This document shows positions 7,856 to 62,186 of a stretch of DNA of 64,000 bases, in pieces (the first letter of the stretch is position 1; every line of letters begins with the position of its first letter). Below the pieces are notes generated by a model. The model saw only the letters and a program-made list of their open reading frames with translations. It was not told the origin of the DNA and did no database searches. The position numbers and the translations under genes were made by a program. The stretch is from an uncultured Candidatus Berkelbacteria bacterium. GTDB lineage: Bacteria > Patescibacteriota > UBA1384 > UBA12157 > JAENIV01. The stretch spans positions 313,010 to 377,009 of the forward strand of contig OY969116.1 in NCBI GenBank assembly GCA_963698075.1, given 5' to 3'.

Positions 7856-8412
7856 AATTGACCGACGGCGAAAAACATTGGCTCAATATTGAGAACTATT
7901 ATTTCGTCAACTTTTGGCTTTAGATTTTCAACAGTTTCTGGTGGCGCCACCGGCACGGCAATAATAATTTTAGCCGGATTTTGTAATTTCACTTCCTTTA
8001 TTGCCACTTCCATCGTTAAACCGGTAGCCAATCCGTCATCAACAAGAATCGCCATTTTGTTTTTTAAATCAATCTCTGGTTTTGAGCCGCGATATTCTTT
8101 AAGACGTCTTTGGATTTCTTGGCGCTCTTTTCGTGCCTCGTCCTGGAGATATTCTGGATTAGGGTTTTCTCGCGGGCTGATGATCATTTCGTGGGCAGAA
8201 ACCGCCGCCACCGCGTATTCCGGATTCATGGGCGCGCCGATTTTGCGGGTGACAATAATATCTAATGGCGAGTTTAGAGTTTTGGCAACTTCAGCGCCGA
8301 TGATAATCCCACCGCGGGGCAAAGCTAAAATAATCCCCTTTTTAATCTCGGGAAATTTACTTCTTAATTTTTGAGAAAGCATCTGACCAGCCTCAACTCG
8401 ATTTCTAAACAT
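7801..8412 (-). CDS. Type I phosphoribosyltransferase-domain protein
   Basis: ILVDDGLATGLT PRPP-binding motif; about 200 aa. Confidence 0.55.
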   Translation of the reverse strand: MFRNRVEAGQMLSQKLRSKFPEIKKGIILALPRGGIIIGAEVAKTLNSPLDIIVTRKIGAPMNPEYAVAAVSAHEMIISPRENPNPEYLQDEARKERQEIQRRLKEYRGSKPEIDLKNKMAILVDDGLATGLTMEVAIKEVKLQNPAKIIIAVPVAPPETVENLKPKVDEIIVLNIEPMFFAVGQFYEEFPQISDDEVKKLLS

Positions 8413-10885: not shown

Positions 10886-11408
10886 AATGAACGCTTGTGT
10901 TGATTTGGCTCAAAAAACAATCAAAGACTATTTAATAGATGGTCGAATTTTTGACGCCGATTTGGCCCCAGAGACTTTAAGAAAAAATCGCGCTGGTTGT
11001 TTCGTCTCTTTGCACTTAAAAGATAATAAGGAATTACGCGGATGTATTGGCACGATTTTGCCAACCTGCAAAAATCTCGCTGGTGAAATTATTAACAATG
11101 CTATTTCTGCCTGTCGGGATCCGAGATTTACGCCGGTAACTAAAGAAGAATTGGATAACTTGGATATTTCGGTCGATGTTTTAAGCGATCCAGAACCGAT
11201 TTCTTCGGTTAAATCCCTTGAACCAAAAAAATATGGCGTGATTGTCAAAGCCAAAGACGGCCGTACCGGATTGCTCCTTCCTGATTTAGAAGGAATAGAT
11301 GACGCCGCCTATCAAGTGGCCATTGCTAAACAGAAGGCTGGGATATTACCAGACGAATCGGTATATCTTTACCGTTTTACTGTCGAGAGACATAAGGAAA
11401 TAACTTAA
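10878..11408 (+). CDS. AmmeMemoRadiSam system protein A (AMMECR1 domain)
   Basis: AGCFVSLH...LRGCIGT hallmark of AMMECR1. Confidence 0.75.
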   Translation: MTKMNACVDLAQKTIKDYLIDGRIFDADLAPETLRKNRAGCFVSLHLKDNKELRGCIGTILPTCKNLAGEIINNAISACRDPRFTPVTKEELDNLDISVDVLSDPEPISSVKSLEPKKYGVIVKAKDGRTGLLLPDLEGIDDAAYQVAIAKQKAGILPDESVYLYRFTVERHKEIT

Positions 11409-11423
11409 TTCGAAAGGAGTCCT

Positions 11424-12389
11424 GTGGGAGAAAAACCTTCGTTTAGCCCTGAAGAAAATTATGCTCAATTTAAAGAAACTCAAAGAAAAAAACAAGAACT
11501 AGCTTTGAAAAAAGGTCAATTCGATGCTAGTAATTGGCTGGTTAAACTTTTTCACAAAAGATCATTTGCTAAAGAGTACCAACAAATAGCATCTAAGTCG
11601 GCTCAATTAGAAAAAGAAAGTGAAAGGATGATTGCGGATGCAAAATTTCATATGAGGCAAATACAACAAGAAGCACAGATCGAAGAAATTAAAAGAAATC
11701 CCCAAGTATTAAAAACTTTGGAAGATGATTATTCACGCCTAGACGACAGTGAAAGAGACCGTTTTTTTAATCAAAGAATTCCTATTGCGGTAGCCTTTGC
11801 TCGAGGATATGTTTTGCGAGGAAAAGATTTTTCCAGCGCAGGACTCTTACCAAGTGAGAAGACTAATGGTCATATTGAATTCACTAAGCCATGGAGACCG
11901 GAAGATTTTGAATTAGGTAGATATTCCGGTCCAGAAAGACAACCTGACCAGAACGTCGTCAAGTTGGACGAAAGTGGTAAACTTAGTACGTCAGCATTAA
12001 GAAATGCTCTACTCACATTATTTGAGCCAACGCAAGAACTAATTGCAAAAGACGAAGCTGCAGCCTCAATTAGTCCAACACTATGGAACAGAGAGCTTTT
12101 AAAAATTGTAAATTCTTTGTCTGAATTAAATCGATTTTTAACCTATCTTTCACCTCATTTAGTTGAGACTAGTATAAATTTAGAAGAAGTTTACGAAGGC
12201 AGTAGGCATCTACCAAAGGCGGATCTAGGGAGAATGAATGTTTTACCTTCTAGGTCTTATCAGAACGCAGCGCTTGGTGAATTCTATTATGTTAACACAG
12301 TTTCGGGTATATATACGCTTTATCCGCTTCTAATCGAAAAAATTAAAGAATCCCAAGAATCTAATCCTGACGTATTCTCAAACTCTTAG
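11424..12389 (+). CDS. Hypothetical protein (GTG start), coiled-coil N-terminus
   Basis: 321-aa ORF with no motif I can recognise; starts gtgggagaaaaacc. Confidence 0.3.
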   Translation: MGEKPSFSPEENYAQFKETQRKKQELALKKGQFDASNWLVKLFHKRSFAKEYQQIASKSAQLEKESERMIADAKFHMRQIQQEAQIEEIKRNPQVLKTLEDDYSRLDDSERDRFFNQRIPIAVAFARGYVLRGKDFSSAGLLPSEKTNGHIEFTKPWRPEDFELGRYSGPERQPDQNVVKLDESGKLSTSALRNALLTLFEPTQELIAKDEAAASISPTLWNRELLKIVNSLSELNRFLTYLSPHLVETSINLEEVYEGSRHLPKADLGRMNVLPSRSYQNAALGEFYYVNTVSGIYTLYPLLIEKIKESQESNPDVFSNS

Positions 12390-12398
12390 TATGTAACT

Positions 12399-12755
12399 AT
12401 GCAAATAGCTCAAATTGTTCCCAAAGTGAGAACTCAAGATGAGGGTGTTTTTGATTATGCGATACCACCGGCATTATTGCCAATGATAAAAGTTGGTCTC
12501 CTAACCGAAATCCCCTTTCACGGTCGAAAAATTGAAGGGATAATAGTTAAATTAAAATCCAAATCGCATGCGGTACAAATTTCAAATCTCAAATCTATTT
12601 CAAATATTATCGATCCAGTCCCTGCTGTTGATGATACCCATATCAAACTTGCCCAATGGATGACGAATTATTATTTGGAGCCGTTAGGAAAAACTCTCTT
12701 TGAATTTATCGTCCCGCCGGCCAAAAGAACCATTAAAAAACTGGCCCATGAATAA
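12399..12755 (+). CDS. priA: Primosomal protein N' N-terminal (3'-DNA-binding) domain, as a separate ORF
   Basis: 118 aa; stop TAA overlaps ATG of the next ORF (ATGAATAA at 12748-12755); PriA-type N-terminus. Confidence 0.55.
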   Translation: MQIAQIVPKVRTQDEGVFDYAIPPALLPMIKVGLLTEIPFHGRKIEGIIVKLKSKSHAVQISNLKSISNIIDPVPAVDDTHIKLAQWMTNYYLEPLGKTLFEFIVPPAKRTIKKLAHE

Positions 12756-20339: not shown

Positions 20340-20636
20340 GTGAAGCCGACTATGGGCGCAGCCATGCGGACGAGGCGGCAAGAAACAACCATCCAAGAGT
20401 TCTGCGAGTCCGTTTATCGGGCCATTGTCTCACAGCTCGAAAACGCTGGCAGAACTAGCCAAGCACACGATCCCAACATAAGGAACGAAGTGCTTTGGCA
20501 CGCCTCGAAGCTTTGGGATGGAACTCATCCCCAGTATCGAGGCACGACCCGTAGGAGCAGGAAGCGGGTAACCGAGTTGGTCTACAAACTAGTAACCTCG
20601 GGCGAGGAAACCAATGCAGCAAAACAGGCGACATAA
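20340..20636 (+). CDS. Hypothetical GC-rich small ORF (could alternatively be a structured RNA)
   Basis: 98-aa ORF in a roughly 350-bp stretch of clearly elevated GC. No motif I can recognise. Confidence 0.2.
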   Translation: MKPTMGAAMRTRRQETTIQEFCESVYRAIVSQLENAGRTSQAHDPNIRNEVLWHASKLWDGTHPQYRGTTRRSRKRVTELVYKLVTSGEETNAAKQAT

Positions 20637-31886: not shown

Positions 31887-32537
31887 TTAATTCTCCTTTA
31901 TTTCTTTGTCCAATTCTTTGTAAAATTTCAACATAAAATTAGCGCGTTTCTTTGATATTTTTCTAGAAATAGAAAAGTTTAAATTTTCCCATTTTTTGAT
32001 ACCATCTCTGCGAAGCTGATCGAGCAAACTATGGTCAAGCCAGACTTCTTTTGTGTTAGGAACAGATGCCGGATTAAATATTGGAAAACCCATTTCGCCA
32101 AACCAATATGAGAATCTAGCCACGCCAATAGCGCCAATAGCCTCAATCCGATCTGCGTCCTGTATTATTTTTGTTTCAACATGGTCTGTTGGTTCATGAT
32201 CATGGCCCCAAGAAAAATTATCGTGCAAGCGAATAGTTTCGAGAACCTCAGCAATTTTATCTTTTGGAAAACCAACTTCATTAAGCCACTTTTTTGCCAA
32301 TTTCATTCCATAAACTGGGTGGTTCTTAGCATCCTGTTCGTGATTTTTATATCCAACATCATGCAAAAGTGCGCCCGCATAAACAACATCTTTATCGCAT
32401 TTAATATTTTTTGCTATTTTTAATGCGTTTTTTTGCGTGCGTAGATGGTGGTAAAAATCATGACAGGCGGTATATTCATTAAGATAGTTTTTCAGTTTTA
32501 ATGAGAGTTCTTTTTTCCAATGTTTGCTATTTGACAT
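31887..32537 (-). CDS. HD-domain phosphohydrolase
   Basis: H..GALLHDVG ... DAD metal ligands. Confidence 0.6.
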   Translation of the reverse strand: MSNSKHWKKELSLKLKNYLNEYTACHDFYHHLRTQKNALKIAKNIKCDKDVVYAGALLHDVGYKNHEQDAKNHPVYGMKLAKKWLNEVGFPKDKIAEVLETIRLHDNFSWGHDHEPTDHVETKIIQDADRIEAIGAIGVARFSYWFGEMGFPIFNPASVPNTKEVWLDHSLLDQLRRDGIKKWENLNFSISRKISKKRANFMLKFYKELDKEIKEN

Positions 32538-33225
32538 GAGACATTAATTTGATTGATTTATCTTTTTTAGGCAAGCCGCAATTTTTTTCGTCTTCCCAAC
32601 AAATTCCTTCGGTTTTGCAAGTTGGACCGGCATATTTGAAAATTGTCGGAGCAACTTTCATCAATTCTTTATGCATCAAATAAGCCATGCTGCGAATTTC
32701 CCACTGCGCTCGATTACACATTCTTCTTGCCAAAAAATTAAACAATGAACGGGCGTTCATAGTGATAACAATTTTGACATCTGTCGCATTTGGTAAAATA
32801 AAACGAGCGTCTTCTTTTGGAATACCTAAATTAATTAATCTTTCGTAAACCATTCCCAAATTGTAAATCGTATAGTCAAAAAGTTTAAAAGCTTCTTCGT
32901 TGGAACGAATGGTTGGAGGAATAACAAACCCGAAATTTTTTCCGTTGATGTAACGCTGTGATTGTTGCGAATAACTTGCAATTCTATGACGAACTAATTC
33001 ATGAGTTAATACGCGCGATACCTCTTCAACAGCAAAAGTAAAAGAAACGTGTTCAATGGTTGAAGTGTGACCGCCGGCAATAACCATTTTAATTAATTTG
33101 GTTCTTTCTGCTTCAGTTAATTTTTCTTTTATTTGTTCGGCTGAGTTAGGCGAATAACATTGACGAATCGCTGCGGCCACCACTTTTTCGGGATCTTTAG
33201 TGTAGGAAATTAATTTTACTTTCAT
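32527..33225 (-). CDS. thyX: Flavin-dependent thymidylate synthase
   Basis: HELVRHRIASYSQQSQRY (RHR...S.SxR ThyX motif). Confidence 0.85.
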   Translation of the reverse strand: MKVKLISYTKDPEKVVAAAIRQCYSPNSAEQIKEKLTEAERTKLIKMVIAGGHTSTIEHVSFTFAVEEVSRVLTHELVRHRIASYSQQSQRYINGKNFGFVIPPTIRSNEEAFKLFDYTIYNLGMVYERLINLGIPKEDARFILPNATDVKIVITMNARSLFNFLARRMCNRAQWEIRSMAYLMHKELMKVAPTIFKYAGPTCKTEGICWEDEKNCGLPKKDKSIKLMSHVK

Positions 33226-33227
33226 AA

Positions 33228-34466
33228 TTATTTTTTAATCGGAAATTTCTGACAAAGTCTCGAAACTTCTTTTTTGATTTTTTCTTTCGGCATTTCTTGC
33301 TTCAAAGTTACATAAATTAATTCTGCCACTTTTGCCATTTCTTTTTCTTTCATCCCCCGGGTGGTTAAAGTCGGCGTGCCAACTCGAATACCGGAACCAA
33401 TAAACGGCTTTTCCGGGTCGTTGGGAATGGTATTTTTATTAACGACAATCCCTACTTCTTCTAACATATTTTGGGCTTCTTTGCCCTTGATTTTAATGGA
33501 CCGTAGGTCTACGAGCATCAAATGATTATCCGTTCCGCCACTTACTATACGTAGCCCCAGTTTTTGCAAGGCTTTGGCCAACGCTTTGGCATTTTTAACA
33601 ATTTGTCTTGTATAAACTTTAAAATCCGGATCCATGGCTTCGGCGAAACATACCGCCTTTGACGCGATTTGATGTTCATGCGGACCGCCTTGAGAGCCGG
33701 GGAACACCGCCCGATCAACTTGCTCAGCGAATTCCTTGCGAGTAATGATAATGCCCCCACGTGGCCCTCGCAGGGTTTTATGAGTAGTTGTAGTGACAAC
33801 GTCAGCATACGGGAAACACGAAGGATGGACTCCGCCCACAATCAAACCGGCAATGTGAGCGATATCAGCGAATAGAAGCGCGCCAACTGATTTCGCAATT
33901 TCGCCGAACTTTTTAAAATCAATAATTCGCGAATAAGCGGTTGCTCCGCAAACAATCATTTTTGGTTTTTCCCGCTTCGCAATTTTTGCTATCTCATCAT
34001 AGTCCAGTGTTTCTGACTCGGGATCAACACCATAGGCAACAAAATTGTACGCTTTGCCAACTAAACTAATTGGCAGACCGTGTGAAATATGCCCACCTTG
34101 GTCAAGTCGCATTCCCATTATTTTATCGCCGAATTCTAAAAAAGCAAAATAAACCGCAATATTGGCAGGTGTGCCGGAATAGGGCTGAACATTGGCATGC
34201 CATTTTGCGGGCGTTAGTTTAAAAATTTTTAAAACACGTTCTATTGCCAAATCCTCGATTTTGTCAATAATTTTGTTACCGCCATAATATCGGGCGTGTG
34301 GTTTACCTTCGGCATATTTATCGTTAAAAACCGAACCCAGCGCTTCTCGGACTTCGGCGCTGGTAATATTTTCAGAAGGAATTAATTCCAAAACATTTTC
34401 TTGGCGATCCTCTTCGGCCGCAATCAGCTTGGCCACCTTTGGGTCATTTGATTTTAAGCTCATCAT
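33228..34466 (-). CDS. glyA: Serine hydroxymethyltransferase
   Basis: TTTTHKTLRGPRGG PLP-lysine motif; full-length SHMT. Confidence 0.9.
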   Translation of the reverse strand: MMSLKSNDPKVAKLIAAEEDRQENVLELIPSENITSAEVREALGSVFNDKYAEGKPHARYYGGNKIIDKIEDLAIERVLKIFKLTPAKWHANVQPYSGTPANIAVYFAFLEFGDKIMGMRLDQGGHISHGLPISLVGKAYNFVAYGVDPESETLDYDEIAKIAKREKPKMIVCGATAYSRIIDFKKFGEIAKSVGALLFADIAHIAGLIVGGVHPSCFPYADVVTTTTHKTLRGPRGGIIITRKEFAEQVDRAVFPGSQGGPHEHQIASKAVCFAEAMDPDFKVYTRQIVKNAKALAKALQKLGLRIVSGGTDNHLMLVDLRSIKIKGKEAQNMLEEVGIVVNKNTIPNDPEKPFIGSGIRVGTPTLTTRGMKEKEMAKVAELIYVTLKQEMPKEKIKKEVSRLCQKFPIKK

Positions 34467-34990
34467 TGCCTTTCATACTTTTCGATCTTGTCTTCTAAAA
34501 CTCTTAATTTAACTTTGGCCTTTTTAAAAATTCTTCTGGTTTCTTGTCCCGCGTGATACTTTCTTAATGCCACAACTTCTTTAATACCACTATTGACAAT
34601 CATTTTAGCACAGGTTGAACATGGCTCCATCTTAATATAAATTGTTGCGCCCTCTATTGAAGTACCAAATTTAGCCGCTTGACAAATGGCATTTTGTTCG
34701 GCATGAATTGTCCGAACGCAATGTTCGGAAATTTTTCCCTCTTCATCAATGACTTTCCTCATGTCATGACCAACGTCGTCGCAATGGGGTTGACCAATTG
34801 CTGAGCCAACGTAACCGGTTGATAAAATGCGTCGGTCTTTGACAATCACCGCCGCCGATCTACCTCTGTCACAAGTTGACCGGTTGGCAACTGTCTGCAT
34901 CACCGAAATAAAATATTCATCCCAACTCGGCCGTTTGTATTTGACCTTTTTGTCTATTTTCCTTTTTGTCTTTTTATCTCTATTTGGCAT
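34463..34990 (-). CDS. comEB: dCMP deaminase
   Basis: HAEQNAI and PCSTCAK zinc-binding motifs. Confidence 0.8.
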   Translation of the reverse strand: MPNRDKKTKRKIDKKVKYKRPSWDEYFISVMQTVANRSTCDRGRSAAVIVKDRRILSTGYVGSAIGQPHCDDVGHDMRKVIDEEGKISEHCVRTIHAEQNAICQAAKFGTSIEGATIYIKMEPCSTCAKMIVNSGIKEVVALRKYHAGQETRRIFKKAKVKLRVLEDKIEKYERQ

Positions 34991-35561
34991 TGATTTTTCT
35001 CCAAAGTTTTTCCAAATTATCGGCTAATTCTTTTTTTGTTTCTTCATTCACAATCGTATAATCAGCCATGGCGATCGGACCGCCTTTGTTCAAATTTTCC
35101 AGTTCGGCTCGGTCGCGCGCTCTTGCCTCATCTAAACTAAATGAACGATATTTCATCAAAGGATCAGCCCCGTGTTTTCGCGAACGTCCACCAAGTCTTT
35201 TATAGCGCGTTTCCGGGCTCGAGTAAACTGCCAGGCAAATAAAATTTTTGTAGCGTTTTTTAAAGGCTAAATATTCTTCCCACGAATAAAGACCATCAAC
35301 AATAATATCTCCTTTAAGTTTATCAATTTTCGGAAAATTTAAAGTGGCAAACGCAGCCATTCCATATTTTTTTCGGAAACCTTCGCGGATTGGCCGTTCA
35401 TTTTTTTCCGTCGGTTCCAGTCCCCGTCGCTTAACTTCATCTAAAGTGATTTGCCCAAGCCGAATATAACCAAAACCCTTGCGGACAAAAAAATCCGCCA
35501 CTTCACTTTTACCTGCCCCCGGCATGCCGACAATCGCAATAATTTTTCGCATGCTGTTCAT
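34980..35561 (-). CDS. P-loop nucleotide kinase (dephospho-CoA-kinase/adenylate-kinase-like)
   Basis: IVGMPGAGKS Walker A; about 190 aa; embedded in the dNMP metabolism cluster. Confidence 0.4.
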   Translation of the reverse strand: MNSMRKIIAIVGMPGAGKSEVADFFVRKGFGYIRLGQITLDEVKRRGLEPTEKNERPIREGFRKKYGMAAFATLNFPKIDKLKGDIIVDGLYSWEEYLAFKKRYKNFICLAVYSSPETRYKRLGGRSRKHGADPLMKYRSFSLDEARARDRAELENLNKGGPIAMADYTIVNEETKKELADNLEKLWRKINAK

Positions 35562-35983
35562 CTTCTCCCCGTGCTTCCAAAACCTCTTTGCCCTCGCCTA
35601 GAATCGGACAAACTTTTAACTTCTTTTATTTTTGCTCGGATGATTGGTTGGATTAATAATTGAGCAATGCGTTCGCCCTTGCTAATTTTAACTCTTTTTT
35701 TGGATAAATTCCAAAGAGCAATTCCAATCTCTCCACGATAGCCAGCATCAATGACGCCGCCCAAGGAAATTAAACCCTCTTTTGTTGCTAAACCACTTCG
35801 TTCCCAAATTAAGCCGGCGAATTTTTTTGGAATTTCTACAGCTAATCCAGAGCTAAATGTATACCGTTCCCCGGGCTTGAGAATTTTATCTTCGATACTA
35901 TATATATCCATGCCGGCGTCGCCGGCGTGAGAATATTTCGGTAAAATCGCTTTAGATAATAATTTCTTGAATTTGATTAACAC
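35558..35983 (-). CDS. dut: dUTP diphosphatase
   Basis: AGMDIY, GLIWERSGLA, GVIDAGYRGEI, FGSTG dUTPase motifs. Confidence 0.85.
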   Translation of the reverse strand: MLIKFKKLLSKAILPKYSHAGDAGMDIYSIEDKILKPGERYTFSSGLAVEIPKKFAGLIWERSGLATKEGLISLGGVIDAGYRGEIGIALWNLSKKRVKISKGERIAQLLIQPIIRAKIKEVKSLSDSRRGQRGFGSTGRR

Positions 35984-38432: not shown

Positions 38433-38720
38433 CTACTCGATTAGGTCAGCCCTTTTGAGAGCTTCAATCACCTCATCTTTGAGTGACTCGCCCCGGGGAA
38501 GCCCGAAGCTCTTGACTCTGATTGGGCCGTTAGCCCCTTCCTCGTGGAGGATGACTACCTCAAAACCATCGCACAAGACAATGATACTGCCAGGAGTTGG
38601 GGAATGATATTTGCGGCCCCAACAACGACCGACGAAACCGGTGAGATTGCACTTATTCCAGATGCCGTCTAAGGCCTTTCTTGCCTCAACGAGTCGTTCG
38701 CCATCGCGTTGTCTGGCCAC
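38433..38720 (-). CDS. Hypothetical small protein, moderately GC-rich
   Basis: 95-aa ORF directly downstream of ssrA; no recognised motif. Confidence 0.2.
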   Translation of the reverse strand: MARQRDGERLVEARKALDGIWNKCNLTGFVGRCWGRKYHSPTPGSIIVLCDGFEVVILHEEGANGPIRVKSFGLPRGESLKDEVIEALKRADLIE

Positions 38721-38826
38721 CTTTGACCTCCAAGAGAAGGTTTGCTATATCATAGTAATATAAAGCTTGAGTGTCAACCCTTGACAAAATGTAAAGTTGA
38801 CTTTACAATGTAGGTGGAGAGGAAAT

Positions 38827-39492
38827 ATGAAAATTTACATTCAACGTATCTCCCGTAGGTTAAGAAGTCTAAGGGAAGAGAAAGATCTCACTCAAGAAGA
38901 GCTTGCCGATCGACTGGGAATATCGAGACAATCGATAATCTCGGTTGAAAAAGGCAAATGTTTACCTTCTCTTCCCTTAGCCCTACGTATTTCGGAAATT
39001 TTTGAAAAATCTTTAGAAGACTTGTTTTTTGGTAATCAAAAAGAGAAAGGAGGTGATAATATGCCACGTTTCCTTATGCCCTGGTCGCCTTTCCGCAGAT
39101 TGGATAATTTTTTCGAGGATGAGGATTCATCGGCTTCCCCGCGATGGCGAGGATTCCAGTTCCCGATGGTTAACGTCAAACAATCTGACAAAGATATCGT
39201 TGTAACGGCTGACATTCCGGGGATCAAAGAAGAGGATGTCAATATTGAGGTTGGCGATACTTTTGTTGATATCTCTGGTGAGCGAAAAGAGGAAACCAAG
39301 AAAGAAGACGAAGGTTATTTCCACCAGGAAGTACGCTACGGTTCCTTTGCCCGACGCATTCCACTCCCGACTGAAGTCAAAGCAGATAAAGCCGACGCCA
39401 CAATCAAAGATGGACAACTGCGAATCACAATTCCCAAGCTCGAACCCGAAAAACCCAAAGTGACCAAAATCAAGGTCAAAAAAGCAAGCTAA
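38827..39492 (+). CDS. XRE-family HTH domain fused in-frame to an Hsp20/alpha-crystallin domain; internal RBS+ATG at 39061
   Basis: LTQEELADRLGISRQSIISVEKG (HTH_XRE) then MPRFLMPWSPFRRLD...VNVKQSDKDIVVTADIPGIKEEDVNIEV...GQLRITIPK (sHSP). AAGGAGGTGA 4 nt before the internal ATG. Upstream TTGACA-17-TACAAT. Confidence 0.6.
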   Translation: MKIYIQRISRRLRSLREEKDLTQEELADRLGISRQSIISVEKGKCLPSLPLALRISEIFEKSLEDLFFGNQKEKGGDNMPRFLMPWSPFRRLDNFFEDEDSSASPRWRGFQFPMVNVKQSDKDIVVTADIPGIKEEDVNIEVGDTFVDISGERKEETKKEDEGYFHQEVRYGSFARRIPLPTEVKADKADATIKDGQLRITIPKLEPEKPKVTKIKVKKAS

Positions 39493-39559
39493 AAATTTTG
39501 TTTGAAAGTCATTTTACCCTTGTTTTAAGATTTAATCTTTGATAATATACAAGATAGAT

Positions 39560-40204
39560 ATGACACCCCAAAAAGAAAGTAAAAAACCCTACATTATCGG
39601 CATTACCGGTGGTACAGCATCAGGAAAAACTTTCGTCATTGAGGCCTTAAAAGATGCTTTCAACGGCAAGATTTTAGTCATTTCCCAAGATCAATATTAC
39701 AAAGGCGAAAGAGTCAAAAGATTTGATCGTTGGGAAAGGGCTAATTTAGACCAACCAAGCGCTTTTGATAATGAGTTGTTAGAAAAGCATCTCCATGATT
39801 TGATTGCCGGAAAAACAGTCCTCGCACCGGTTTATAATTATCAACTTCATCAACAAACCAAAGCCAAAGTGCCGCTTGAGCCCAAACCAGTGATAATCCT
39901 CGAGGGAATCATGATTTTCAATGACGAAAGATTAAGAAATCTCATGGATTGGAAGGTTTATCTTGAAGCCGCCCCGGACATTCGTCTGGCCCGCCGTTTA
40001 CTGCGCGATATTGAAGAGCGGGGCGTTACCATTCAAAACATCCGTTCAACCATTGAATGGTACGTCCAAAACGTCAAACCGATGCATGATAAATATATCC
40101 ATCCGATGAAACAATATGCTGACGCCCGCCTTAACACTGACAAAGGCTCGCTCGAGGCCGCCAACACGGTCAAAGAAAAGGTTAAGGAAATTTTGCGCGC
40201 TTAG
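39560..40204 (+). CDS. udk: Uridine kinase
   Basis: IIGITGGTASGKT P-loop, Udk-like length. Stop TAG 40202-40204 lies inside the tRNA-Val 5' acceptor stem. Confidence 0.8.
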   Translation: MTPQKESKKPYIIGITGGTASGKTFVIEALKDAFNGKILVISQDQYYKGERVKRFDRWERANLDQPSAFDNELLEKHLHDLIAGKTVLAPVYNYQLHQQTKAKVPLEPKPVIILEGIMIFNDERLRNLMDWKVYLEAAPDIRLARRLLRDIEERGVTIQNIRSTIEWYVQNVKPMHDKYIHPMKQYADARLNTDKGSLEAANTVKEKVKEILRA

Positions 40205-40269
40205 CTCAGTGGCAGAGCGTCTCTTTGACGTAGAGAAGGTCACTGGTTCAAGTCCAGTAGCGCGCACCA
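40195..40269 (+). tRNA. tRNA-Val (anticodon GAC) with encoded CCA
   Basis: Hand-folded cloverleaf: acceptor gcgcgct/agcgcgc, anticodon arm tctct-ttgacgt-agaga, T-arm actgg-ttcaagt-ccagt. Confidence 0.9.
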
Positions 40270-40296
40270 TTGGTAAGGGGGCTTTTTTATGAAGAA

Positions 40297-40317
40297 GCGG
40301 TCGCCTATGGCGACCGC
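40297..40317. terminator. Perfect palindrome gcggtcgcc-tat-ggcgaccgc between convergent tRNA-Val and GC-rich gene
   Basis: 9-bp perfect inverted repeat, preceded by gggggctttttt. Confidence 0.4.
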
Positions 40318-40335
40318 CTTGAACTCGACTTTGAT

Positions 40336-41403
40336 CTATTCTTCGAACTCGATTTCGCGGACCGCCTTTCCCGAGGCCTTGACGATACCAAGACCATGCG
40401 TTTCCCCATAGCCACCTTTCTTGACGACGACGGTGTGGATGCTTGAACCAGCAATGAGCTTAGCGCAACTCAGACAGGGTATGGAGTTGACGTAAATGGT
40501 GGTGCCGGCGACCGGGATCCCGACATTGGCCGCCGTCAGAAACGCCATTTCTTCAGCATGAATCGCTCGACAAACCTCAAGCATTTGTCCCGACGGGATG
40601 CCTCTTTCATCCCTTTCGCAGCCCACGTCGGCACAAAGTTCCGAACCGGGATATTGGCCATTGAAACCTGTCGCAATCACCCTCAGCTCCTCGGGGATGG
40701 CAATCACGCAGCCGTATCGCCGGGTCTGACCCACGAGATATCCCTGTTCGTCTCGAGGGAAACTACCATCAGCAGCACGCTGACAACCCCTAACGCAATT
40801 AGAAAGCCGAGAGGTGGCCACGACAATCCCCATGAAGTAGCGATCCCGGCGAGCAATCTCTCTTTGGTATTCTTCAGTACCGAGACCAACGCCTGTCAAA
40901 CCCGTCGAACCAAATCCACCTATCCCCCTCATTGTTGGTGGTAACTCCTCTGCTGTCGCCACCTCAAGCAGATCAGGAATTTCCACCTGTGAAAAGATAA
41001 GCTGAGCAACACGCATCTCAGGCTCGATGGTAAACGGCTGACGGCCACGGTTAACCAAGAGACACCCCGCCTCGCCGCGGAAGTCCGGATCAATCGTTCC
41101 AGGACTGTTTCCCAGTTCAATTCGGTGCTTGGTTGCCAAACCGCTTCGCGGTCGCACTTCAACCTGGTGACCCCAGGGAAGAGCCATCGCAAAGCCAACA
41201 CCAATCAAAATGGCATCGTCAGGAAGAATTGTTACTGGTAGTTCCTCTCTCACTTCTCGTGTGTTTGGATCAAGAACTCGAGAGGCAAAGACATCATAGC
41301 CGATAGCCCCGGGGCTTGCCCTCACTGGCAACCGAGCATCAGGACGAACCTTCCAAACTCGAATACTTCCCAGCACTTCCGGCATCTTCCTTCCTCCACT
41401 CAA
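40336..41403 (-). CDS. Bifunctional dUTPase - dCMP deaminase fusion, GC-rich
   Basis: N-terminal GAIGYDV ... RSGLA ... GTIDPDFRGE ... GFGSTG (dUTPase). C-terminal HAEEMAF ... PCLSCAKL (cytidine/dCMP deaminase zinc motifs). GC far above background. Confidence 0.7.
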   Translation of the reverse strand: MSGGRKMPEVLGSIRVWKVRPDARLPVRASPGAIGYDVFASRVLDPNTREVREELPVTILPDDAILIGVGFAMALPWGHQVEVRPRSGLATKHRIELGNSPGTIDPDFRGEAGCLLVNRGRQPFTIEPEMRVAQLIFSQVEIPDLLEVATAEELPPTMRGIGGFGSTGLTGVGLGTEEYQREIARRDRYFMGIVVATSRLSNCVRGCQRAADGSFPRDEQGYLVGQTRRYGCVIAIPEELRVIATGFNGQYPGSELCADVGCERDERGIPSGQMLEVCRAIHAEEMAFLTAANVGIPVAGTTIYVNSIPCLSCAKLIAGSSIHTVVVKKGGYGETHGLGIVKASGKAVREIEFEE

Positions 41404-41472
41404 AGGTGCTCTCCAACCGCCTTTAATATAGCAAAGACAAATTTTAAAGCAACAGAAAAATATTGAGTTCTT

Positions 41473-42222
41473 TTAATTAGAGCTTTTTTCAATTACAATC
41501 GTCATTTTCCCGGAGCTGCTACCAAGATGGGCAATTCGTTGGCGCCAATCATAGTCACGATGATATTTCTTGATTTTAATATTATTGCTGCAAATATTTT
41601 TTATCATCGACTCTAACTTTTTTGGCGTCAAAAAAAACACTATTGAATTAGGTGTGACTTCCAATGACTTTATTCTTAATCCAATTCTAGCGTTAATTTT
41701 AGATAAATAATAAATTAATTTCGATCCCAGGGACGATTCATCAACTAACTCTTCGATAAAAATTGCTCCGTCCGGTTTCAAAGGCCGCCAAAGCTCTTTA
41801 AGAGCTTTTTCTTGATTATTGAGTGTTTCTTGATAATTTTTACCGATAAGATGATGGAGAATATCACGAATAATTAAACAATCGAAAGATTTATCAGCCA
41901 ATTTCGAATCCAGGATCGATCCATGAACAAAATTAATTTTTTTTAAAATTTGGCGGTTTCGATAGCTGGCGATTAGTTCGATATTCGTTAACTCACTTTG
42001 AGGAAAAGAATGATGAATTTGGGCCAATAATTGACCCGCGGCCCCTCCAAACTCAGCTATCTTAATTTTTTTTCCGCCAGAGGCGGATCGGCCTTTGGCC
42101 GACTTTTTTCTCGCCCAAGCTAAAAAAAGCGGAATAATTGGCGAGGTTGCCGCCGATTGATCTTTCTTCGCATAGTAATCAAGCTGTTCTTCAAAGAGCT
42201 TTGCCACCGAGGGATCTTGCAT
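41473..42222 (-). CDS. Class I SAM-dependent methyltransferase
   Basis: IAEFGGAAGQL motif I-like; DILHH. Confidence 0.5.
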   Translation of the reverse strand: MQDPSVAKLFEEQLDYYAKKDQSAATSPIIPLFLAWARKKSAKGRSASGGKKIKIAEFGGAAGQLLAQIHHSFPQSELTNIELIASYRNRQILKKINFVHGSILDSKLADKSFDCLIIRDILHHLIGKNYQETLNNQEKALKELWRPLKPDGAIFIEELVDESSLGSKLIYYLSKINARIGLRIKSLEVTPNSIVFFLTPKKLESMIKNICSNNIKIKKYHRDYDWRQRIAHLGSSSGKMTIVIEKSSN

Positions 42223-42223
42223 T

Positions 42224-43243
42224 CTAACTTCTCAATTTCCTAATTTCCGGCCACTCTTGAATTAAAACCGATATTGCCGCCGCAATTGGCACGGCAATCA
42301 AAACGCCCAAGATGCCCATAAGTTTAGCGCCCACCAGTAAAGCTAAAATAATGATCACTGGCGAAAGTCCCACCGCCTTACCCATTACTTTCGGGGCTAA
42401 AAACTGAGCTTCCAATTGTTGAATGACCAAATAAGCAATAAAAATCAATAAAGCTTTTAGGGGCGAAACCGTTAAGGCAACCAAAAAAGCCGGTATCAAC
42501 CCTAACCAAGGTCCAATATAAGGGATGACCTCAGTAATCGCTCCCCAAACAGCTAGAACTAAAGCATAAGGAATTCCCAAAGCGAGTAAGGCAACTGCAT
42601 CTAAAACTCCGATGATGACCATCAGTATGGCTTGACCTCTGAGCCATCCTCCCATTTTGCCGCCGATTTTTCTTAAAATTTCAAAAATTTTTTCTTTTTG
42701 GGTAAAAGGAAGAGTCTGCTCTAAAAATTTCTTTAAAGATTCTTGTTCCAAAAGCATATAAAAAGCCAAGACTAAAATTGTCAAAAAAGCCACGACCCCG
42801 GTAATAAAACCGACGGTCGTCGAATAAATTCCTGAGCCCAAACGACCCAATTGCGAGGAAATATTAAATAATCCTTCTTGGTAATTGCTGATCGAATTTT
42901 GAATCGTCTGATAAAAGGGTCCCAATTTAGATAAAATCGTCGGTAAATTGATGGCCAATAATTGAAGCTGGTGGACAATCGGCGGGATGATTAAATAACC
43001 TATGCCCCCCAAAACGCTCAAGAAAACCAAAGAAAATATAATCACTGCCAAGACCCGAGGCATTAATTTGGCCAGCCAATCAACAATTGGACCAAAAGCG
43101 GCGACAATGACCAAGACAATAAAGAAGAGGACGACAATATCACGGATGGCATATATAAACCAAACGGCAAAAACCGCCAAAATTAGCTTGATAATTGTTG
43201 ACGTCGAAATTTCAAATTTTATCCGGTCAGCATGCTTTTCCAT
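42224..43243 (-). CDS. AI-2E family transporter (PerM/YdiK-like)
   Basis: About 8 TM helices with the characteristic conserved loop ...LRGQAILMVIIGVLDAV... of the UPF0118/AI-2E family. Confidence 0.7.
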   Translation of the reverse strand: MEKHADRIKFEISTSTIIKLILAVFAVWFIYAIRDIVVLFFIVLVIVAAFGPIVDWLAKLMPRVLAVIIFSLVFLSVLGGIGYLIIPPIVHQLQLLAINLPTILSKLGPFYQTIQNSISNYQEGLFNISSQLGRLGSGIYSTTVGFITGVVAFLTILVLAFYMLLEQESLKKFLEQTLPFTQKEKIFEILRKIGGKMGGWLRGQAILMVIIGVLDAVALLALGIPYALVLAVWGAITEVIPYIGPWLGLIPAFLVALTVSPLKALLIFIAYLVIQQLEAQFLAPKVMGKAVGLSPVIIILALLVGAKLMGILGVLIAVPIAAAISVLIQEWPEIRKLRS

Positions 43244-43304
43244 CTTTAGTTCTACTTTATTCTAACAGGTAAAAGGTGAAAAAACAAGATTTTTAAGCTC
43301 GAGG

Positions 43305-43333
43305 TTGACTTTTGGGTCATTTTATGGTATAAT
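43305..43333 (+). promoter_or_regulatory. Consensus TTGACT-17 bp-TATAAT promoter upstream of the GC-rich beta-propeller gene
   Basis: TTGACT 43305-43310, TATAAT 43328-43333, then an 80-nt GC-rich hairpin-containing leader and ggaaagg SD. Confidence 0.45.
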
Positions 43334-43415
43334 CTCTAGGTTGTACCTGAAAAACCGGGTGTATCCCGGATAAAGCCTTGCGCCCCGAGGGGACAAGGCG
43401 GAAAGGCATTGAGCG

Positions 43416-44411
43416 ATGAAGCACAGCTCGGTCGTACTGATGGTTCTGGCGTTGGTCTTGTTGTGTATGATGGCCTGCAGCGCGGTGATGGCGTACGTTC
43501 CAGACTACCCCCCTATCTCTGAATCGCTGGCAGGAAGAACCCTCGCCCTCGCGGCGGTGCCCGCGGGCTCGATCGCACCCGTGCCGCAGGTCTTCGTCTG
43601 GCAGTATGGACGCCAGCCGGTCCAGATCACCAACTCCCGATGGGCCGTTACCCATCCGCGCTGGTCACCCAACGGCCACCTCCTTGCCGTCAACGACGGC
43701 AACCAGGTGGCGACGATCAACCTCGCCAACGGCAGAGAGACCATCGTCGTACCCGGTCCCCGCAAGTTCCTGGGAGACTGGTCATCGGATGGCCGTTTCC
43801 TCTGCTACACGGCGTTGACGTGGGTCCCGGAGTGGGACGACTTCTTCTTCCCGCGCGTCTGGTACGTGGACGTTCACACCAAGAAGAACTTCCAGATCCC
43901 GGACCATGGTGTGGACCAGCGCAATCCCACCTGGGGGGCCGACGGCACCATCGCCTACGAAGAGTGGGAGGGGGTCCCGCCGGTGATCAAGGGCTACAAC
44001 CCTTACACCGGCGAAGAGAAGCCCCTGGTGCCGATCGATGAGAAGTTTCATGGAGCGGAGAATCCGGTCTGGACCCCCGAGGGCGATCTTTACTACAACA
44101 ACTGGCCGCCCTACACCGACACCAACAAGATCTTCTTGGTTACAAACGAGGAGATCCCGGGCCGCGGCGACCCCGTCACCCACAACCTATGGGAATGGGG
44201 TGAGGACACGCCGGAACTGGCGACTGCCGAGGGTGACCTGTTCTACTACTCCCTGGGTCAGAACCAGTACACCACCTACCACTTCTTCCGCGACCGTTTC
44301 GGCACGCTGTGGGGCCTTGATCACATCATCGGCCTCGACTACTGGTGCGGATCAATCACCATCACCCAGAGCCAACCGATCCACCGCCGTTACTGGCGAT
44401 GGCGCCGATAA
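43416..44411 (+). CDS. Secreted (possible lipoprotein) TolB-like beta-propeller protein, GC-rich
   Basis: Signal peptide with LLCMMAC. Repeated PD40/WD40-like blades (PRWSPNGHLLA, DWSSDGRFLCY, PTWGADGTIAYEE, PVWTPEGDLYY). GC about 60%. Confidence 0.5.
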   Translation: MKHSSVVLMVLALVLLCMMACSAVMAYVPDYPPISESLAGRTLALAAVPAGSIAPVPQVFVWQYGRQPVQITNSRWAVTHPRWSPNGHLLAVNDGNQVATINLANGRETIVVPGPRKFLGDWSSDGRFLCYTALTWVPEWDDFFFPRVWYVDVHTKKNFQIPDHGVDQRNPTWGADGTIAYEEWEGVPPVIKGYNPYTGEEKPLVPIDEKFHGAENPVWTPEGDLYYNNWPPYTDTNKIFLVTNEEIPGRGDPVTHNLWEWGEDTPELATAEGDLFYYSLGQNQYTTYHFFRDRFGTLWGLDHIIGLDYWCGSITITQSQPIHRRYWRWRR

Positions 44412-58024: not shown

Positions 58025-58756
58025 CTACCACCAGTCGACGGCCTGGGATACTTCGACCTCCTCCCCCTCATCGATACTAAAATGGACCGGCAGGGTAAGG
58101 GCTGCGTAGGGCCCCCATCCCAGCGACACCGTATAGCTGCCGGCAAAGAGCTCGGGCCAAACGGCCTGGCCCGAGGAGTTGGTGTAATGATACTCCTCCA
58201 CATGGAGGAGTCCCCCTAGTGTCAATCCATCCAACCAAACCAGGACGCCCGGCGCGGGAGCGCCAGACTCATCGGTCACTGTTGCGGTCACCCTCGAGTA
58301 CTCGCACACATCGAGGGCAACGACGTGGATTTCGCCGGGGGTGCCGGCGAAGTCGATGGTCGCCGTATCTCCATCCTGGCGAAGTCCATCGACCTGCATA
58401 AAGGTCCACCAGTCAGAGGGAAGCTGGAAGATAACCCTCCATTTCCCTCTCGACGCCCTTACCTCAACCGGCGTCGAATACCTCTTGGTCTTTCCGTCGG
58501 GGTTGATGACCCACACCCGCCAGGCGAGCCATTGCTCGCCTAGATCTAGATCCAGGACGAAGTCCAGGTCCTTGTCATCCAAGACTCGGACCTGAAGCTG
58601 AGGCCAAGACGGTCCTCCCTTCTTGAGGGGAACCGCCGGCCCTGCCATCGCACTTGAGGCGATGGCGCAGAGCAACATCGACACTACCAGGAACTGCAAT
58701 ACAGCACCAACCCTTCGTCTCGACATCTTCGGACCCCTCCGTGCCAGTATCCCCAA
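58025..58756 (-). CDS. Secreted GC-rich protein with Ig/prealbumin-like (CarboxypepD_reg-like) C-terminal domain
   Basis: Signal peptide (AVLQFLVVSMLLCAIASSAMA). SGAPAPGVLVWLDG...TNSSGQAVWPELFAGSYTVSL. GC about 65%. Confidence 0.4.
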   Translation of the reverse strand: MGILARRGPKMSRRRVGAVLQFLVVSMLLCAIASSAMAGPAVPLKKGGPSWPQLQVRVLDDKDLDFVLDLDLGEQWLAWRVWVINPDGKTKRYSTPVEVRASRGKWRVIFQLPSDWWTFMQVDGLRQDGDTATIDFAGTPGEIHVVALDVCEYSRVTATVTDESGAPAPGVLVWLDGLTLGGLLHVEEYHYTNSSGQAVWPELFAGSYTVSLGWGPYAALTLPVHFSIDEGEEVEVSQAVDWW

Positions 58757-60743: not shown

Positions 60744-61820
60744 TTATCCGACGCTTCCCAGATCGGCGTTGCGCAAGTCTTCGGCGGCATGCTCAGGTGT
60801 GCGGGGATTGATGTAGGCGCCCGAGCCCTTCTCGAGGGCCGCCAGAATTGCTTCGGTGATTGGTTCGATCTGACAATGCCAATGATAGGTCTCTAGCTCA
60901 GTGTCGGTGGGAGGGGCAGTGTGGAAGTAGAGGTTGTAGTCAGGGTCGTTGAGTGTTACCCGAATCCTCTTCAGCGTCTCCTGTAGCAACAAGGCGAATT
61001 CCGTCAGAAGGTCGGCTCCTTGAGGATGGGTCGAGATGTTGGCAAAGTAGCTCTGGTGATACCGCGGTCCCACAATAACCTGATAAGGCGTCCTTGAGGT
61101 GAAGGGACACCAAGCCATGAAGTTTTCGGTGACATTGATCAACCGTTCCTTGGCAAGCAGTTCCCAATCTCTCTCCTCACAGTAGAAACAGGAGCGATTC
61201 AGGTCATAATAGTGCCGGGCGCCTGCCAACTCATGGTAGATCCGCGCTGGCAATGTCGGTAGCGCCACCAACTGGCTGTGGGGATGGGGTTGGCTGGCGC
61301 CAGCGAGCGGTCCATAATTCTTGAAGAGAAAGATGCAGTGGATGTTCCGTTTACTTCCGATTGCCAAGGTCATCTCCCGCCACATGTGCAAGACTTCGCG
61401 GAAGTAGAAGGGGTCGAGAGTCTCAAGAGCAACATCGTGTCGAGGTGATTCGATGATGACATAGTGGAAGCCGAAAGCCGGCAATACCGTAAACGGTCCA
61501 CGCTTCTCCACCACCAGAATCTCTGAAGGAATCGAGGCGTTCACTGCCGGCGCTAGGTTCGGTACGACTCTCACCCACCAGCCAGGATTGTCTGCCTTCG
61601 TCTCTTTAGCACGATAGGAACTTACTTCCTTCGGGGTCTGGCTCTCCCGACCCTCTTCGAAAGAACACTCTTCGCCGCTGACGAGGCGCGGGTTGAACCT
61701 GGACCAATCGCGCTCTTTCTGCCGCCGTAACTTCTCCAACGGCTTCTCCCGGTCTGAACCGATGATCACCAGCGTCCCCGAAATCGGGTTCCTTCTTAGC
61801 TCTTCCACACGACCTGGCAT
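60744..61820 (-). CDS. galT: Galactose-1-phosphate uridylyltransferase-like (GalT/HIT superfamily) protein, GC-rich
   Basis: SQPHPHSQL matches the GalT HPH active-site motif. CFYCE..C/H zinc-site-like residues. ATG 61820 with aggagg SD. The track ORF's upstream 71 residues read through tRNA-His and are artifactual. Confidence 0.55.
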   Translation of the reverse strand: MPGRVEELRRNPISGTLVIIGSDREKPLEKLRRQKERDWSRFNPRLVSGEECSFEEGRESQTPKEVSSYRAKETKADNPGWWVRVVPNLAPAVNASIPSEILVVEKRGPFTVLPAFGFHYVIIESPRHDVALETLDPFYFREVLHMWREMTLAIGSKRNIHCIFLFKNYGPLAGASQPHPHSQLVALPTLPARIYHELAGARHYYDLNRSCFYCEERDWELLAKERLINVTENFMAWCPFTSRTPYQVIVGPRYHQSYFANISTHPQGADLLTEFALLLQETLKRIRVTLNDPDYNLYFHTAPPTDTELETYHWHCQIEPITEAILAALEKGSGAYINPRTPEHAAEDLRNADLGSVG

Positions 61821-61924
61821 CACAGGCCTCCTTGTACCAAAAAGAACCAGTCCTTCTGGTCCTCGTGGTTTTGTCAAAGGTCTACGATAACCACAATAGA
61901 CCTTATACTTTAGTTTGTCAAGAT

Positions 61925-62000
61925 TGGGGTGGCTGACGCGATTCGAACGCGCGACCGCTCGGGCCACATCCGAGTGCTCTACCACTGAGCTACAGCCACC
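61925..62000 (-). tRNA. tRNA-His (anticodon GTG) with encoded G-1 and CCA
   Basis: rc g-gtggctg-ta-gctc-agtggta-gagc-a-ctcgg-atgtggc-ccgag-cggtc-gcgcg-ttcgaat-cgcgt-cagccac-c-cca. Confidence 0.85.
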
Positions 62001-62186
62001 ATATATAAAATGAATCTGCCTTTTGAAGGCCAAATCTCAAATTCTTGCTGATAAATCAATAAATCCCTAAACTACTACTTTTTACGGGACGCCAACCACC
62101 AAATCAGGGCAACGACGACGACGGCAATGACTACCCACCAATACCAAACCATTAAAATCTCCTTTCATTATCATTATACCATTAAT

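Follow-up and report, generated by a model that had tools for sequence, protein, structure and literature searches.

Is a GC-rich gene that stands beside a tRNA gene in AT-rich surroundings a recently integrated foreign element, or an inherited part of the metabolism of its lineage? The question is raised by a locus in a stretch of 64,000 nucleotides from an uncultured Candidatus Berkelbacteria bacterium of the Patescibacteria (contig OY969116.1, positions 313,010 to 377,009; hereafter the window), where a single gene next to tRNA-Val(GAC) encodes a dUTPase fused to a zinc-dependent dCMP deaminase. An initial annotation had taken this gene for a foreign acquisition. However, the fusion is conserved at the same spot in relatives whose flanking genes are only 51-90% identical to those of the window, and the locus is therefore inherited within its clade and not recently inserted. 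As judged from sequence, the gene probably belongs to a Patescibacteria-specific housekeeping family, vertically inherited, whose members would be bifunctional enzymes carrying out two parallel dUMP-forming reactions; we hold this with moderate confidence.

The fused gene and its product

The gene lies on the minus strand and has the following features.

40336..41385, minus strand: coding sequence of the fused dUTPase-dCMP deaminase, 349 amino acids (aa) from the ATG at 41385
41393..41397, minus strand: Shine-Dalgarno sequence GGAGG, 7 nt 5' of that ATG, read from the sequence
40891..41364, minus strand: dUTPase domain (aa 8-165) with the five trimeric-dUTPase motifs AIGYDV, PRSGLA, GTIDPDFRGE, RVAQLIF and RGIGGFGSTG
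40339..40869, minus strand: zinc dCMP-deaminase domain (aa 173-349) with H276-A-E278, P303-C304-x-x-C307, GFNG and a second zinc site

The initial annotation had described a gene of 355 aa. This length holds for the longest open reading frame (ORF; 40336-41403, minus strand), which opens with a TTG at 41403, but not for the protein. The true start is very probably the ATG at 41385 rather than this TTG, because GGAGG lies 7 nt upstream of it, the 100% identical database protein P0001 is 349 aa long, and the N-termini of the homologues line up with its methionine.

The fusion of a complete dUTPase to a complete zinc dCMP deaminase is confirmed by Pfam, NCBIfam and PHROGs domains, and the motifs quoted at the outset are all present (AIGYDV, PRSGLA, DPDFRGE, RVAQL, GFGSTG, HAEE and PCLSCAK). 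On the 355-aa ORF, Pfam places dUTPase at residues 25-168 (8.9e-20) and dCMP_cyt_deam_1 at residues 228-327 (1.6e-11), the deaminase half scoring 44.4 against PF00383 for a cut-off of 25. The N-terminal half exceeds the equivalog cut-offs of two NCBIfam models for dUTP diphosphatase (NF001862, 126 vs 103 bits; TIGR00576, 124.3 vs 102.55 bits), and PHROGs labels the two halves dUTPase and dCMP deaminase. The AlphaFold2 model of the fusion has a mean predicted local distance difference test score (pLDDT) of 92.2 and a predicted template modelling score (pTM) of 0.76. The N-domain has the dUTPase jelly-roll fold, and the best structural matches of the fused deaminase are the dCMP deaminases of T4, S-TIM5 and S. 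mutans; no solved structure spanning both domains was found in structure searches. The second zinc site of the deaminase consists of four cysteines (C197, C251, C256 and C272), which align to the C/C/H/C of the S. mutans enzyme and of the stand-alone dCMP deaminase of the window, and helix 1 is separated from strand 1 by an insertion of about 22 residues. In an alignment of 120 homologues, 42 columns are invariant, comprising the dUTPase motifs, H276, E278, C304, C307 and the four second-zinc cysteines, which reflects purifying selection on the fusion. The protein contains 30 arginines and 7 lysines.

Conservation of the locus in related genomes

Five relatives, with fusions 63-75% identical to that of the window, keep the gene in a syntenic or related neighbourhood. 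The loci L050 and L033 share long collinear blocks with the window, L049 and L052 are partly rearranged, and L001 has only the fusion and a nearby HSP20 homologue in common with it. In L050 (a 114-kb contig; fusion 64% identical) the gene order of the window is kept over more than 20 kb: ABC transporters, PD40, AI-2E, methyltransferase, fusion, tRNA-Val(GAC), uridine kinase and HTH-HSP20, then transfer-messenger RNA (tmRNA), CHAP, methyltransferase, SmpB, dut, AAA_18, dCMP deaminase and SHMT. Within the 51-90% range of the flanking orthologues, which refers to this comparison, the 64% of the fusion is a mid-range value. The order is fusion, one inserted ORF, tRNA-Val, uridine kinase and HTH-HSP20 in L049 (75%); ABC transporter, fusion, HisKA, response regulator and HTH-HSP20 in L052 (69%); and tRNA-Pro/Arg, ABC transporters, AI-2E, methyltransferase and fusion in L033, a metagenome-assembled genome (MAG) labelled Candidatus Berkelbacteria. 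In L050/L051 the tRNA-Val(GAC) gene adjoins the fusion; in L049 one ORF stands between them. No empty homologous site was found in the relatives, L050/L051 and L033 carrying the fusion where the window has it.

A phylogeny of both halves, which the initial annotation had proposed as a check, points the same way. Neighbour-joining trees of the N- and C-domains each recover a clade of the window, L049, L052, L050 and L001 with matching subclades, and the stand-alone dut genes of the window and of L050 form a separate deep branch outside the fusion-type dUTPase clade.

tRNA-Val and the hairpin

Two features beside the gene had been listed by the initial annotation, and both are present.

40195..40269, plus strand: tRNA-Val(GAC), convergent with the fusion gene
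40297..40317, no strand assigned: 21-nt palindrome (hairpin) GCGGTCGCC-TAT-GGCGACCGC, with 9-bp arms and a 3-nt loop

It is the 3' end of the fusion gene, not an integrase-like 5' end, that points at tRNA-Val. In minus-strand RNA the hairpin has an 11-pair stem located 18 nt past the stop codon of the fusion and followed by UUCUUCAU, and the 84-nt region that holds it folds at -25.5 kcal/mol (z -2.9). An identical hairpin stands 3' of the fusion in L049, where no tRNA adjoins and the next gene is another ORF, and L050 carries a different, canonical hairpin with a T-run at the equivalent place. Judged by where it lies, by how it folds and by its being conserved together with the gene, the hairpin is probably a weak intrinsic terminator of the fusion itself and not an att site; a simple terminator and promoter scan flagged neither the hairpin nor a convincing promoter.

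Searching the whole window with the 3' 25-mer of tRNA-Val (up to 3 mismatches) and with its 3' 16-mer (up to 2 mismatches) retrieved only the tRNA itself, so that the att-like repeats suggested as a sign of integration occur nowhere in the window, and a repeat scan of 39400-43400 gave no relevant repeat. The earlier remark that no integrase is visible holds, since none lies within about 7 kb, and no recombinase gene stands next to tRNA-Val. The neighbours of the fusion are genes for PRK, HTH-HSP20, a methyltransferase, an AI-2E transporter, a PD40 protein and ABC transporters. The tRNA-Val gene is a neighbour conserved within the clade and not an insertion target. What had been described as the classic signature of an integrated acquisition is contradicted by the occurrence of the gene at the same site in diverged relatives, and neither an integrase nor an att repeat supports it.

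Some details of this neighbourhood concern other genes. For the uridine kinase (PRK family; 39539-40204, plus strand), the longest ORF extends over the first 10 nt of tRNA-Val(GAC), and the uridine kinase-tRNA-Val pair is kept in L049 and L050. The ORF at 38797-39492 (plus strand) joins HTH_3 DNA-binding and HSP20/alpha-crystallin domains in one polypeptide and adjoins the uridine kinase also in L049, L050 and L052; in these three loci, but not in the window, a HisKA/response-regulator pair stands beside it.

Base composition

The foreign composition claimed for the gene stands as far as raw values are concerned. Its GC content is 0.544, whereas the remainder of the window has 0.422 and the ordinary genes of the window have 0.408 +/- 0.036 (z 3.8; the background comprises about 70 genes). 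However, amino-acid composition accounts for about 70% of the excess, because the codon usage per amino acid of these ordinary genes, applied to the fusion protein, already gives an expected GC of 0.503, compared with a background of 0.408 +/- 0.026 (z 3.65). The fraction of Gly, Ala, Arg and Pro (GARP) is 0.35 in the fusion vs 0.23 in the background, and that of Phe, Tyr, Met, Ile, Asn and Lys (FYMINK) is 0.19 vs 0.32. The GC content at third codon positions (GC3) is 0.511 where 0.413 is expected, a synonymous excess of +0.098 that corresponds to z 2.0, or to 1.3 after regression of the GC3 excess on amino-acid-expected GC (slope not significant; r 0.19, p 0.16). Several ordinary genes of the window reach the same synonymous excess, and seven others are true synonymous outliers, at 3.1-7.7 standard deviations (sd). 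Across the family, the GC content of the fusion exceeds that of the flanking DNA in 34 of 35 loci, and in the 20 loci that could be analysed amino-acid composition makes up 0.062 of a mean GC excess of 0.079. The GC-richness comes mainly from a protein that is rich in Gly, Arg, Ala and Pro and poor in Lys, Asn and Ile, not from recent foreign DNA. The initial annotation had itself named normal composition and vertical inheritance in relatives as the findings that would speak against it. For the most part they apply: the gene is syntenic, or partly so, in five relatives, and its synonymous excess of about 2 sd places it at the upper limit of what normal genes show.

The strongest of the seven synonymous outliers is a gene for a PD40/Tricorn-like beta-propeller protein (43416-44411, plus strand), with GC 0.62 and GC3 0.82 against a genome GC3 of about 0.38 (z 7.7). 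Its orthologue at the syntenic place in L050 (5747-6763) is 68% identical and has GC3 0.64 against about 0.34. Unlike the fusion, the PD40 gene does look like an insertion, GC-rich through long divergence, because in L033 only a gap of about 110 bp (7923-8034) separates the same ABC2 and AI-2E neighbours between which it stands elsewhere. The six other outliers (z 3.1-6.0) lie at 3912-5144 (minus), 5164-5736 (minus), 20340-20636 (plus), 38433-38720 (minus), 58025-58756 (minus) and 60744-62033 (minus), and comprise a 410-aa protein without Pfam match, an AIRC-like protein, two small ORFs, a CarboxypepD_reg/Big_1 surface-type protein and a GalT-like protein. A homologue of the 95-aa outlier ORF, 62.5% identical and likewise GC-rich, is found at the syntenic place in L049. 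Such GC-rich islets make up about 10% of the genes of the window.

Distribution across the Patescibacteria

The fusion had been called uncommon, which is true across life as a whole but not within the Patescibacteria. A search of 5.8 billion proteins gave 584 matches, the best 120 of which (50-80% identity) all combine a dUTPase with a deaminase; where the homologues have a public name, it is "dUTP diphosphatase [Patescibacteria group bacterium]". Forty-three proteins of a 50%-identity representative library fall below 1e-30, and the library yields some dozen clusters with the full-length fusion. When one genome per species was scanned, the fusion was recovered in about 30 MAGs, labelled Uhrbacteria, Parcubacteria, Buchananbacteria, Paceibacterota, Wolfebacteria and Nealsonbacteria, among others, and outside the Patescibacteria only the dUTPase half was matched. 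The best match to the fusion of the window among GTDB representatives is 57%. No fused homologue is present in IMG/VR (2.9 million viral contigs) or INPHARED (50,697 phage genomes), where viral matches concern the dUTPase half only, at no more than 51% identity. In one phage, Dulem virus 37, ThyX, dut and dCMP deaminase are separate, adjacent, in-frame genes, an arrangement that illustrates how a dut-dCMP deaminase fusion can arise.

In a tblastn survey, the fusion or its dUTPase type was found in NusG-L11-linked thymidylate/folate operons in at least 11 loci, and an intact canonical stand-alone dCMP deaminase shares the operon with the fusion in at least five (L010/L054, L012, L017/L055, L018 and L021). 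For example, the order is NusG, L11, fusion, ThyA, dCMP deaminase, AAA_18, SHMT and FolD in L055, and L11, dCMP deaminase, AAA_18, fusion, Tmk, NUDIX and ThyA in L054. In L032 and L034 the fusion-type dUTPase stands alone beside a separate dCMP deaminase.

Variants of the fusion were also observed. In L028 (10544-11416, 290 aa) the dUTPase is followed by a degenerate deaminase-like domain in which SAE stands in place of HAE and both cysteines of PCxxC as well as the zinc insert are missing, and the C-domains of L025 and L027 probably also lack HAE, PCxxC and the zinc insert. These MAGs have an intact dCMP deaminase directly upstream, and Tmk and ThyX downstream. From its sequence, the degenerate C-domain looks like a pseudo-enzyme domain retained on the dUTPase. 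In L032, from a Nealsonbacteria MAG, the fusion-type dUTPase is directly followed by a 487-aa ORF (11187-12650) with a long N-terminal extension, of which approximately the C-terminal half matches the thymidylate synthase of L054 (Pfam Thymidylat_synt; tblastn).

The second, stand-alone thymidylate gene set

The window carries a separate thymidylate operon at a distance of 5 kb from the fusion.

32527..35983, minus strand: contiguous operon of dut, AAA_18 kinase, dCMP deaminase, SHMT and ThyX
35558-35983, minus strand: stand-alone dut
34980-35561, minus strand: AAA_18 kinase
34463-34990, minus strand: canonical stand-alone dCMP deaminase
33228-34466, minus strand: SHMT
32527-33225, minus strand: ThyX

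The order dut, AAA_18, dCMP deaminase and SHMT is repeated in L050. The initial annotation had seen in the fusion a duplicate of the native dut and dCMP deaminase. A second, stand-alone set is indeed there, but the halves of the fusion share no more than 31% and 29% identity with the stand-alone dut and dCMP deaminase, respectively, and this low identity marks them in sequence comparison as ancient paralogues and not as duplicates. It is also unsafe to regard the AT-rich stand-alone copies as the native ones, as had been done, because in many Patescibacteria it is the fusion that fills the dut position of the thymidylate operon.

A separate observation concerns the stand-alone dCMP deaminase, which is only 36% identical to the gene at the same position in L050 (20107-20712), whereas its operon neighbours are much closer between the two loci (AAA_18 74%, dut 56%, SHMT 67%). 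This suggests, as far as sequence comparison goes, a non-orthologous replacement or very fast evolution of this gene.

Proposed function

We infer both activities of the fusion and their substrates. The trimeric-type dUTPase half would convert dUTP to dUMP and pyrophosphate (PPi), and the zinc-dependent deaminase half would convert dCMP to dUMP and NH3; both reactions would supply dUMP to thymidylate synthase (ThyX or ThyA) and keep dUTP out of DNA. In the lineage of the window, the gene would be expressed as a monocistronic unit with its own ribosome-binding site and hairpin terminator, between the methyltransferase gene and tRNA-Val/uridine kinase, beside the unfused dut and dCMP deaminase of the ThyX operon. 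Since solved dCMP deaminases are hexamers and dUTPases trimers, a deaminase hexamer ring carrying two dUTPase trimers is by analogy a plausible oligomer.

A number of observations weigh against two parallel reactions or against a simple assignment of the deaminase half. Two dCMP deaminases, and here also two dUTPases, look redundant in one small genome, and the presence of two deaminases, in several loci within the same operon, suggests that the fused one may do something different from the canonical enzyme. The dCMP deaminase clade, as defined in PMC3239186 and PMC12088426, includes 'NA' after HxE (PMC3239186). In the fusion family the canonical HAExNA becomes HAE(E/W/Q)(M/W)A; the window has HAEEMA and the family MA, WA, AA, KA or HA in place of 'NA', without conservation of the Asn. 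At the second zinc site a Cys stands in for the usual His ligand, and the insertion of about 22 residues, conserved and Arg-rich, is an addition to the canonical enzyme. The fusion scores 57 bits for a cut-off of 219 with the ComEB equivalog, below which the stand-alone dCMP deaminase of the window also falls (133). Finally, no description of a dUTPase-dCMP deaminase fusion was found in full-text searching of the literature.

Alternative explanations

As to the history of the gene, the recent integration of a foreign islet at the 3' end of tRNA-Val, the reading of the initial annotation, appears highly improbable. Its basis is the raw GC (0.544 vs 0.42), the adjacent tRNA and the position of a single gene in AT-rich flanks, but the same gene, place and tRNA recur in relatives with orthologues of 51-90% identity, att repeat and integrase are missing, the GC excess is mostly of amino-acid origin and the hairpin belongs to the gene. 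A much older event deserves more weight, although we regard it as possible rather than probable: the ancestor of the Berkelbacteria-like clade, which already had the dut-kinase-dCMP deaminase-SHMT-ThyX operon, would have gained the fusion from a GC-richer Patescibacterium, near tRNA-Val, followed by vertical descent and a large amelioration of synonymous sites. In the clade of the window the fusion lies outside the thymidylate operon, unlike in many lineages, and the dut slot is held by another dUTPase type. When the amino-acid bias of the family is regressed on host GC, the protein of the window lies above the line (GARP-FYMINK z +2.0; R/(R+K) z +2.2), as do its clade-mates (L052 +1.5, L049 +1.1 and L050 +0.6 sd), and a mild GC3 excess is common to all four. 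These residuals count against strictly vertical inheritance and are consistent with such an ancient transfer, but they reach only about 2 sd, and the amino-acid part could also come from strong constraint on a Gly/Arg/Pro-rich enzyme plus noise. Synonymous GC excess is strong in the solitary copies L003, L009, L011 and L014 (z 2.5-3.6) and in L052 and absent in operon-embedded copies, from which it would seem that the gene occasionally moves from one Patescibacterium to another; moreover, a tRNA lies within about 300 bp of the fusion in 5 of about 36 loci, with different tRNAs. On the other hand, neither an integrase nor an att repeat nor an empty site came to light, the divergence of the fusion is in step with that of its neighbours, and the deep branching of the clade in the trees of the two domains fits equally well a vertical descent from an early Patescibacterial ancestor with subsequent relocation of the gene. 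An ancient transfer would in any case concern history only and is compatible with parallel as with sequential biochemistry.

As to function, the two domains might act in sequence, the fused zinc deaminase converting dCTP to dUTP and the dUTPase converting this to dUMP, while the stand-alone dCMP deaminase handles dCMP. We judge this unlikely, although it is the foremost functional alternative. That a canonical dCMP deaminase accompanies the fusion, within one operon in the loci named above and within one genome in the window and L050, argues for non-redundant roles, and joining an enzyme that makes dUTP to one that destroys it would give the fusion a clear selective advantage. Some zinc deaminases with this fold are known to use dCTP (PBCV-1 bi-DCD, XP-12 and CDADC1), and triphosphate-specific ones gain Lys/Arg near the active site (PMC12088426); the fused deaminase has six conserved arginines (R199, R211, R222, R258, R273 and R343), three of them in or beside the insertion, which could be read from the sequence in this sense. 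However, a motif of the allosteric type, G(Y/W/F)N(A/G), that resembles the one of dCMP deaminases is kept, the nearest solved structures are monophosphate enzymes, and L028, and probably L025 and L027, lost the fused catalytic residues and kept the stand-alone enzyme, which looks like the loss of a redundant copy. The same variants, which retain their C-domain without HAE, PCxxC or zinc insert, together with the conserved allosteric-type GFN(G/A), speak for a deaminase domain that is mainly a regulatory or oligomerisation module, binding dCTP/dTTP, building hexamers and controlling the dUTPase with little catalysis; this seems improbable to us, as the catalytic His and Glu and both Cys are invariant in the protein of the window and in all 120 aligned homologues. 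Least credible of the functional proposals is an anti-phage nucleotide-depletion effector of the DcdV/dCTP-deaminase type, or a phage-derived nucleotide gene. The catalytic core does match PADLOC dCTPase (8.7e-14) and the NCBIfam anti-phage dCTP deaminase (1.5e-11), and phages often carry dut and dCMP deaminase side by side, as in Dulem virus 37. We rejected a role in defence, as the matches span only about 55-60 residues around HAE/PCxxC (PADLOC residues 267-320); the stand-alone housekeeping dCMP deaminase matches the same models more strongly, NF041025 gives 43.9 bits for a cut-off of 400, the N-domain is a dUTPase and not kinase-like, and the family occurs in NusG-L11-thymidylate operons. 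A phage origin was rejected on the viral searches, which gave only matches to the dUTPase half.

Implications

The genomes of Patescibacteria are tiny, and these bacteria rely on salvage for their nucleotides. Many of them still keep the dUTPase-deaminase fusion in or near the thymidylate operon, often with a second dCMP deaminase, and the fusion is a widespread, uncharacterised domain-fusion variant of two very well known enzymes. Knowing whether it carries out parallel reactions or is a novel type of enzyme leading from dCTP to dUMP would fill a gap in the understanding of thymidylate synthesis in this group. If the two domains acted in sequence, this would explain the conservation of the fusion across Patescibacteria and the canonical dCMP deaminase beside it, as well as the family-specific Arg-rich insertion and the lost 'NA' motif. 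For genome scanning, the locus calls for caution: an atypical raw GC content and an adjacent tRNA gave it the look of an island, although it dates back to the ancestor of its clade.

Comparison with known systems

Like a tRNA-targeted genomic island, the locus presents a compositionally deviant single gene abutting the 3' end of a tRNA. It differs from such islands in having neither an integrase nor a direct repeat of the tRNA 3' end, in an arrangement that is kept in diverged relatives, and in a deviation that lies mostly at the amino-acid level.

Compared with the monofunctional homotrimeric dUTPase (Dut, EC 3.6.1.23), the fusion has a covalent deaminase domain after motif V, and the usual Tyr of motif III (P0002, P0003) is replaced by Phe (DPDFRGE). 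The subclade in which its dUTPase falls is specific to Patescibacteria and carries the signature NSPGTIDPDFRGE. With the zinc dCMP deaminases (DCTD/ComEB/T4 Cd, EC 3.5.4.12) it shares HxE, PCxxC and the zinc insert with a Cys after helix 1; it differs from them in that the deaminase is joined to a dUTPase. The allosteric-site motif of dCMP deaminases is G(Y/W)N(A/G) (PMC12088426); the window has G240-F-N242-G and the family consensus is GFNA, with some GYNA, so that the Phe is absent from the listed Tyr/Trp variants.

Zinc dCTP deaminases, such as PBCV-1 bi-DCD, the XP-12 deaminase, vertebrate CDADC1 and the anti-phage dCTP deaminase/DcdV, have the fold and catalytic motifs in common with the fusion, and some of them are also two-domain fusions, with a kinase-like domain in the defence proteins and a dead deaminase domain in CDADC1. 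The bifunctional DCD-DUT of archaea and mycobacteria combines, as the fusion would, cytosine-nucleotide deamination and dUTP hydrolysis to dUMP in one polypeptide, but it does so with a single dUTPase-fold domain bearing the dCTP deaminase signature, which the fusion does not fit. If the fused domains did act in sequence, DCD-DUT would be the functional analogue of the fusion, which would represent its convergent, zinc-dependent counterpart for making dUMP from dCTP.

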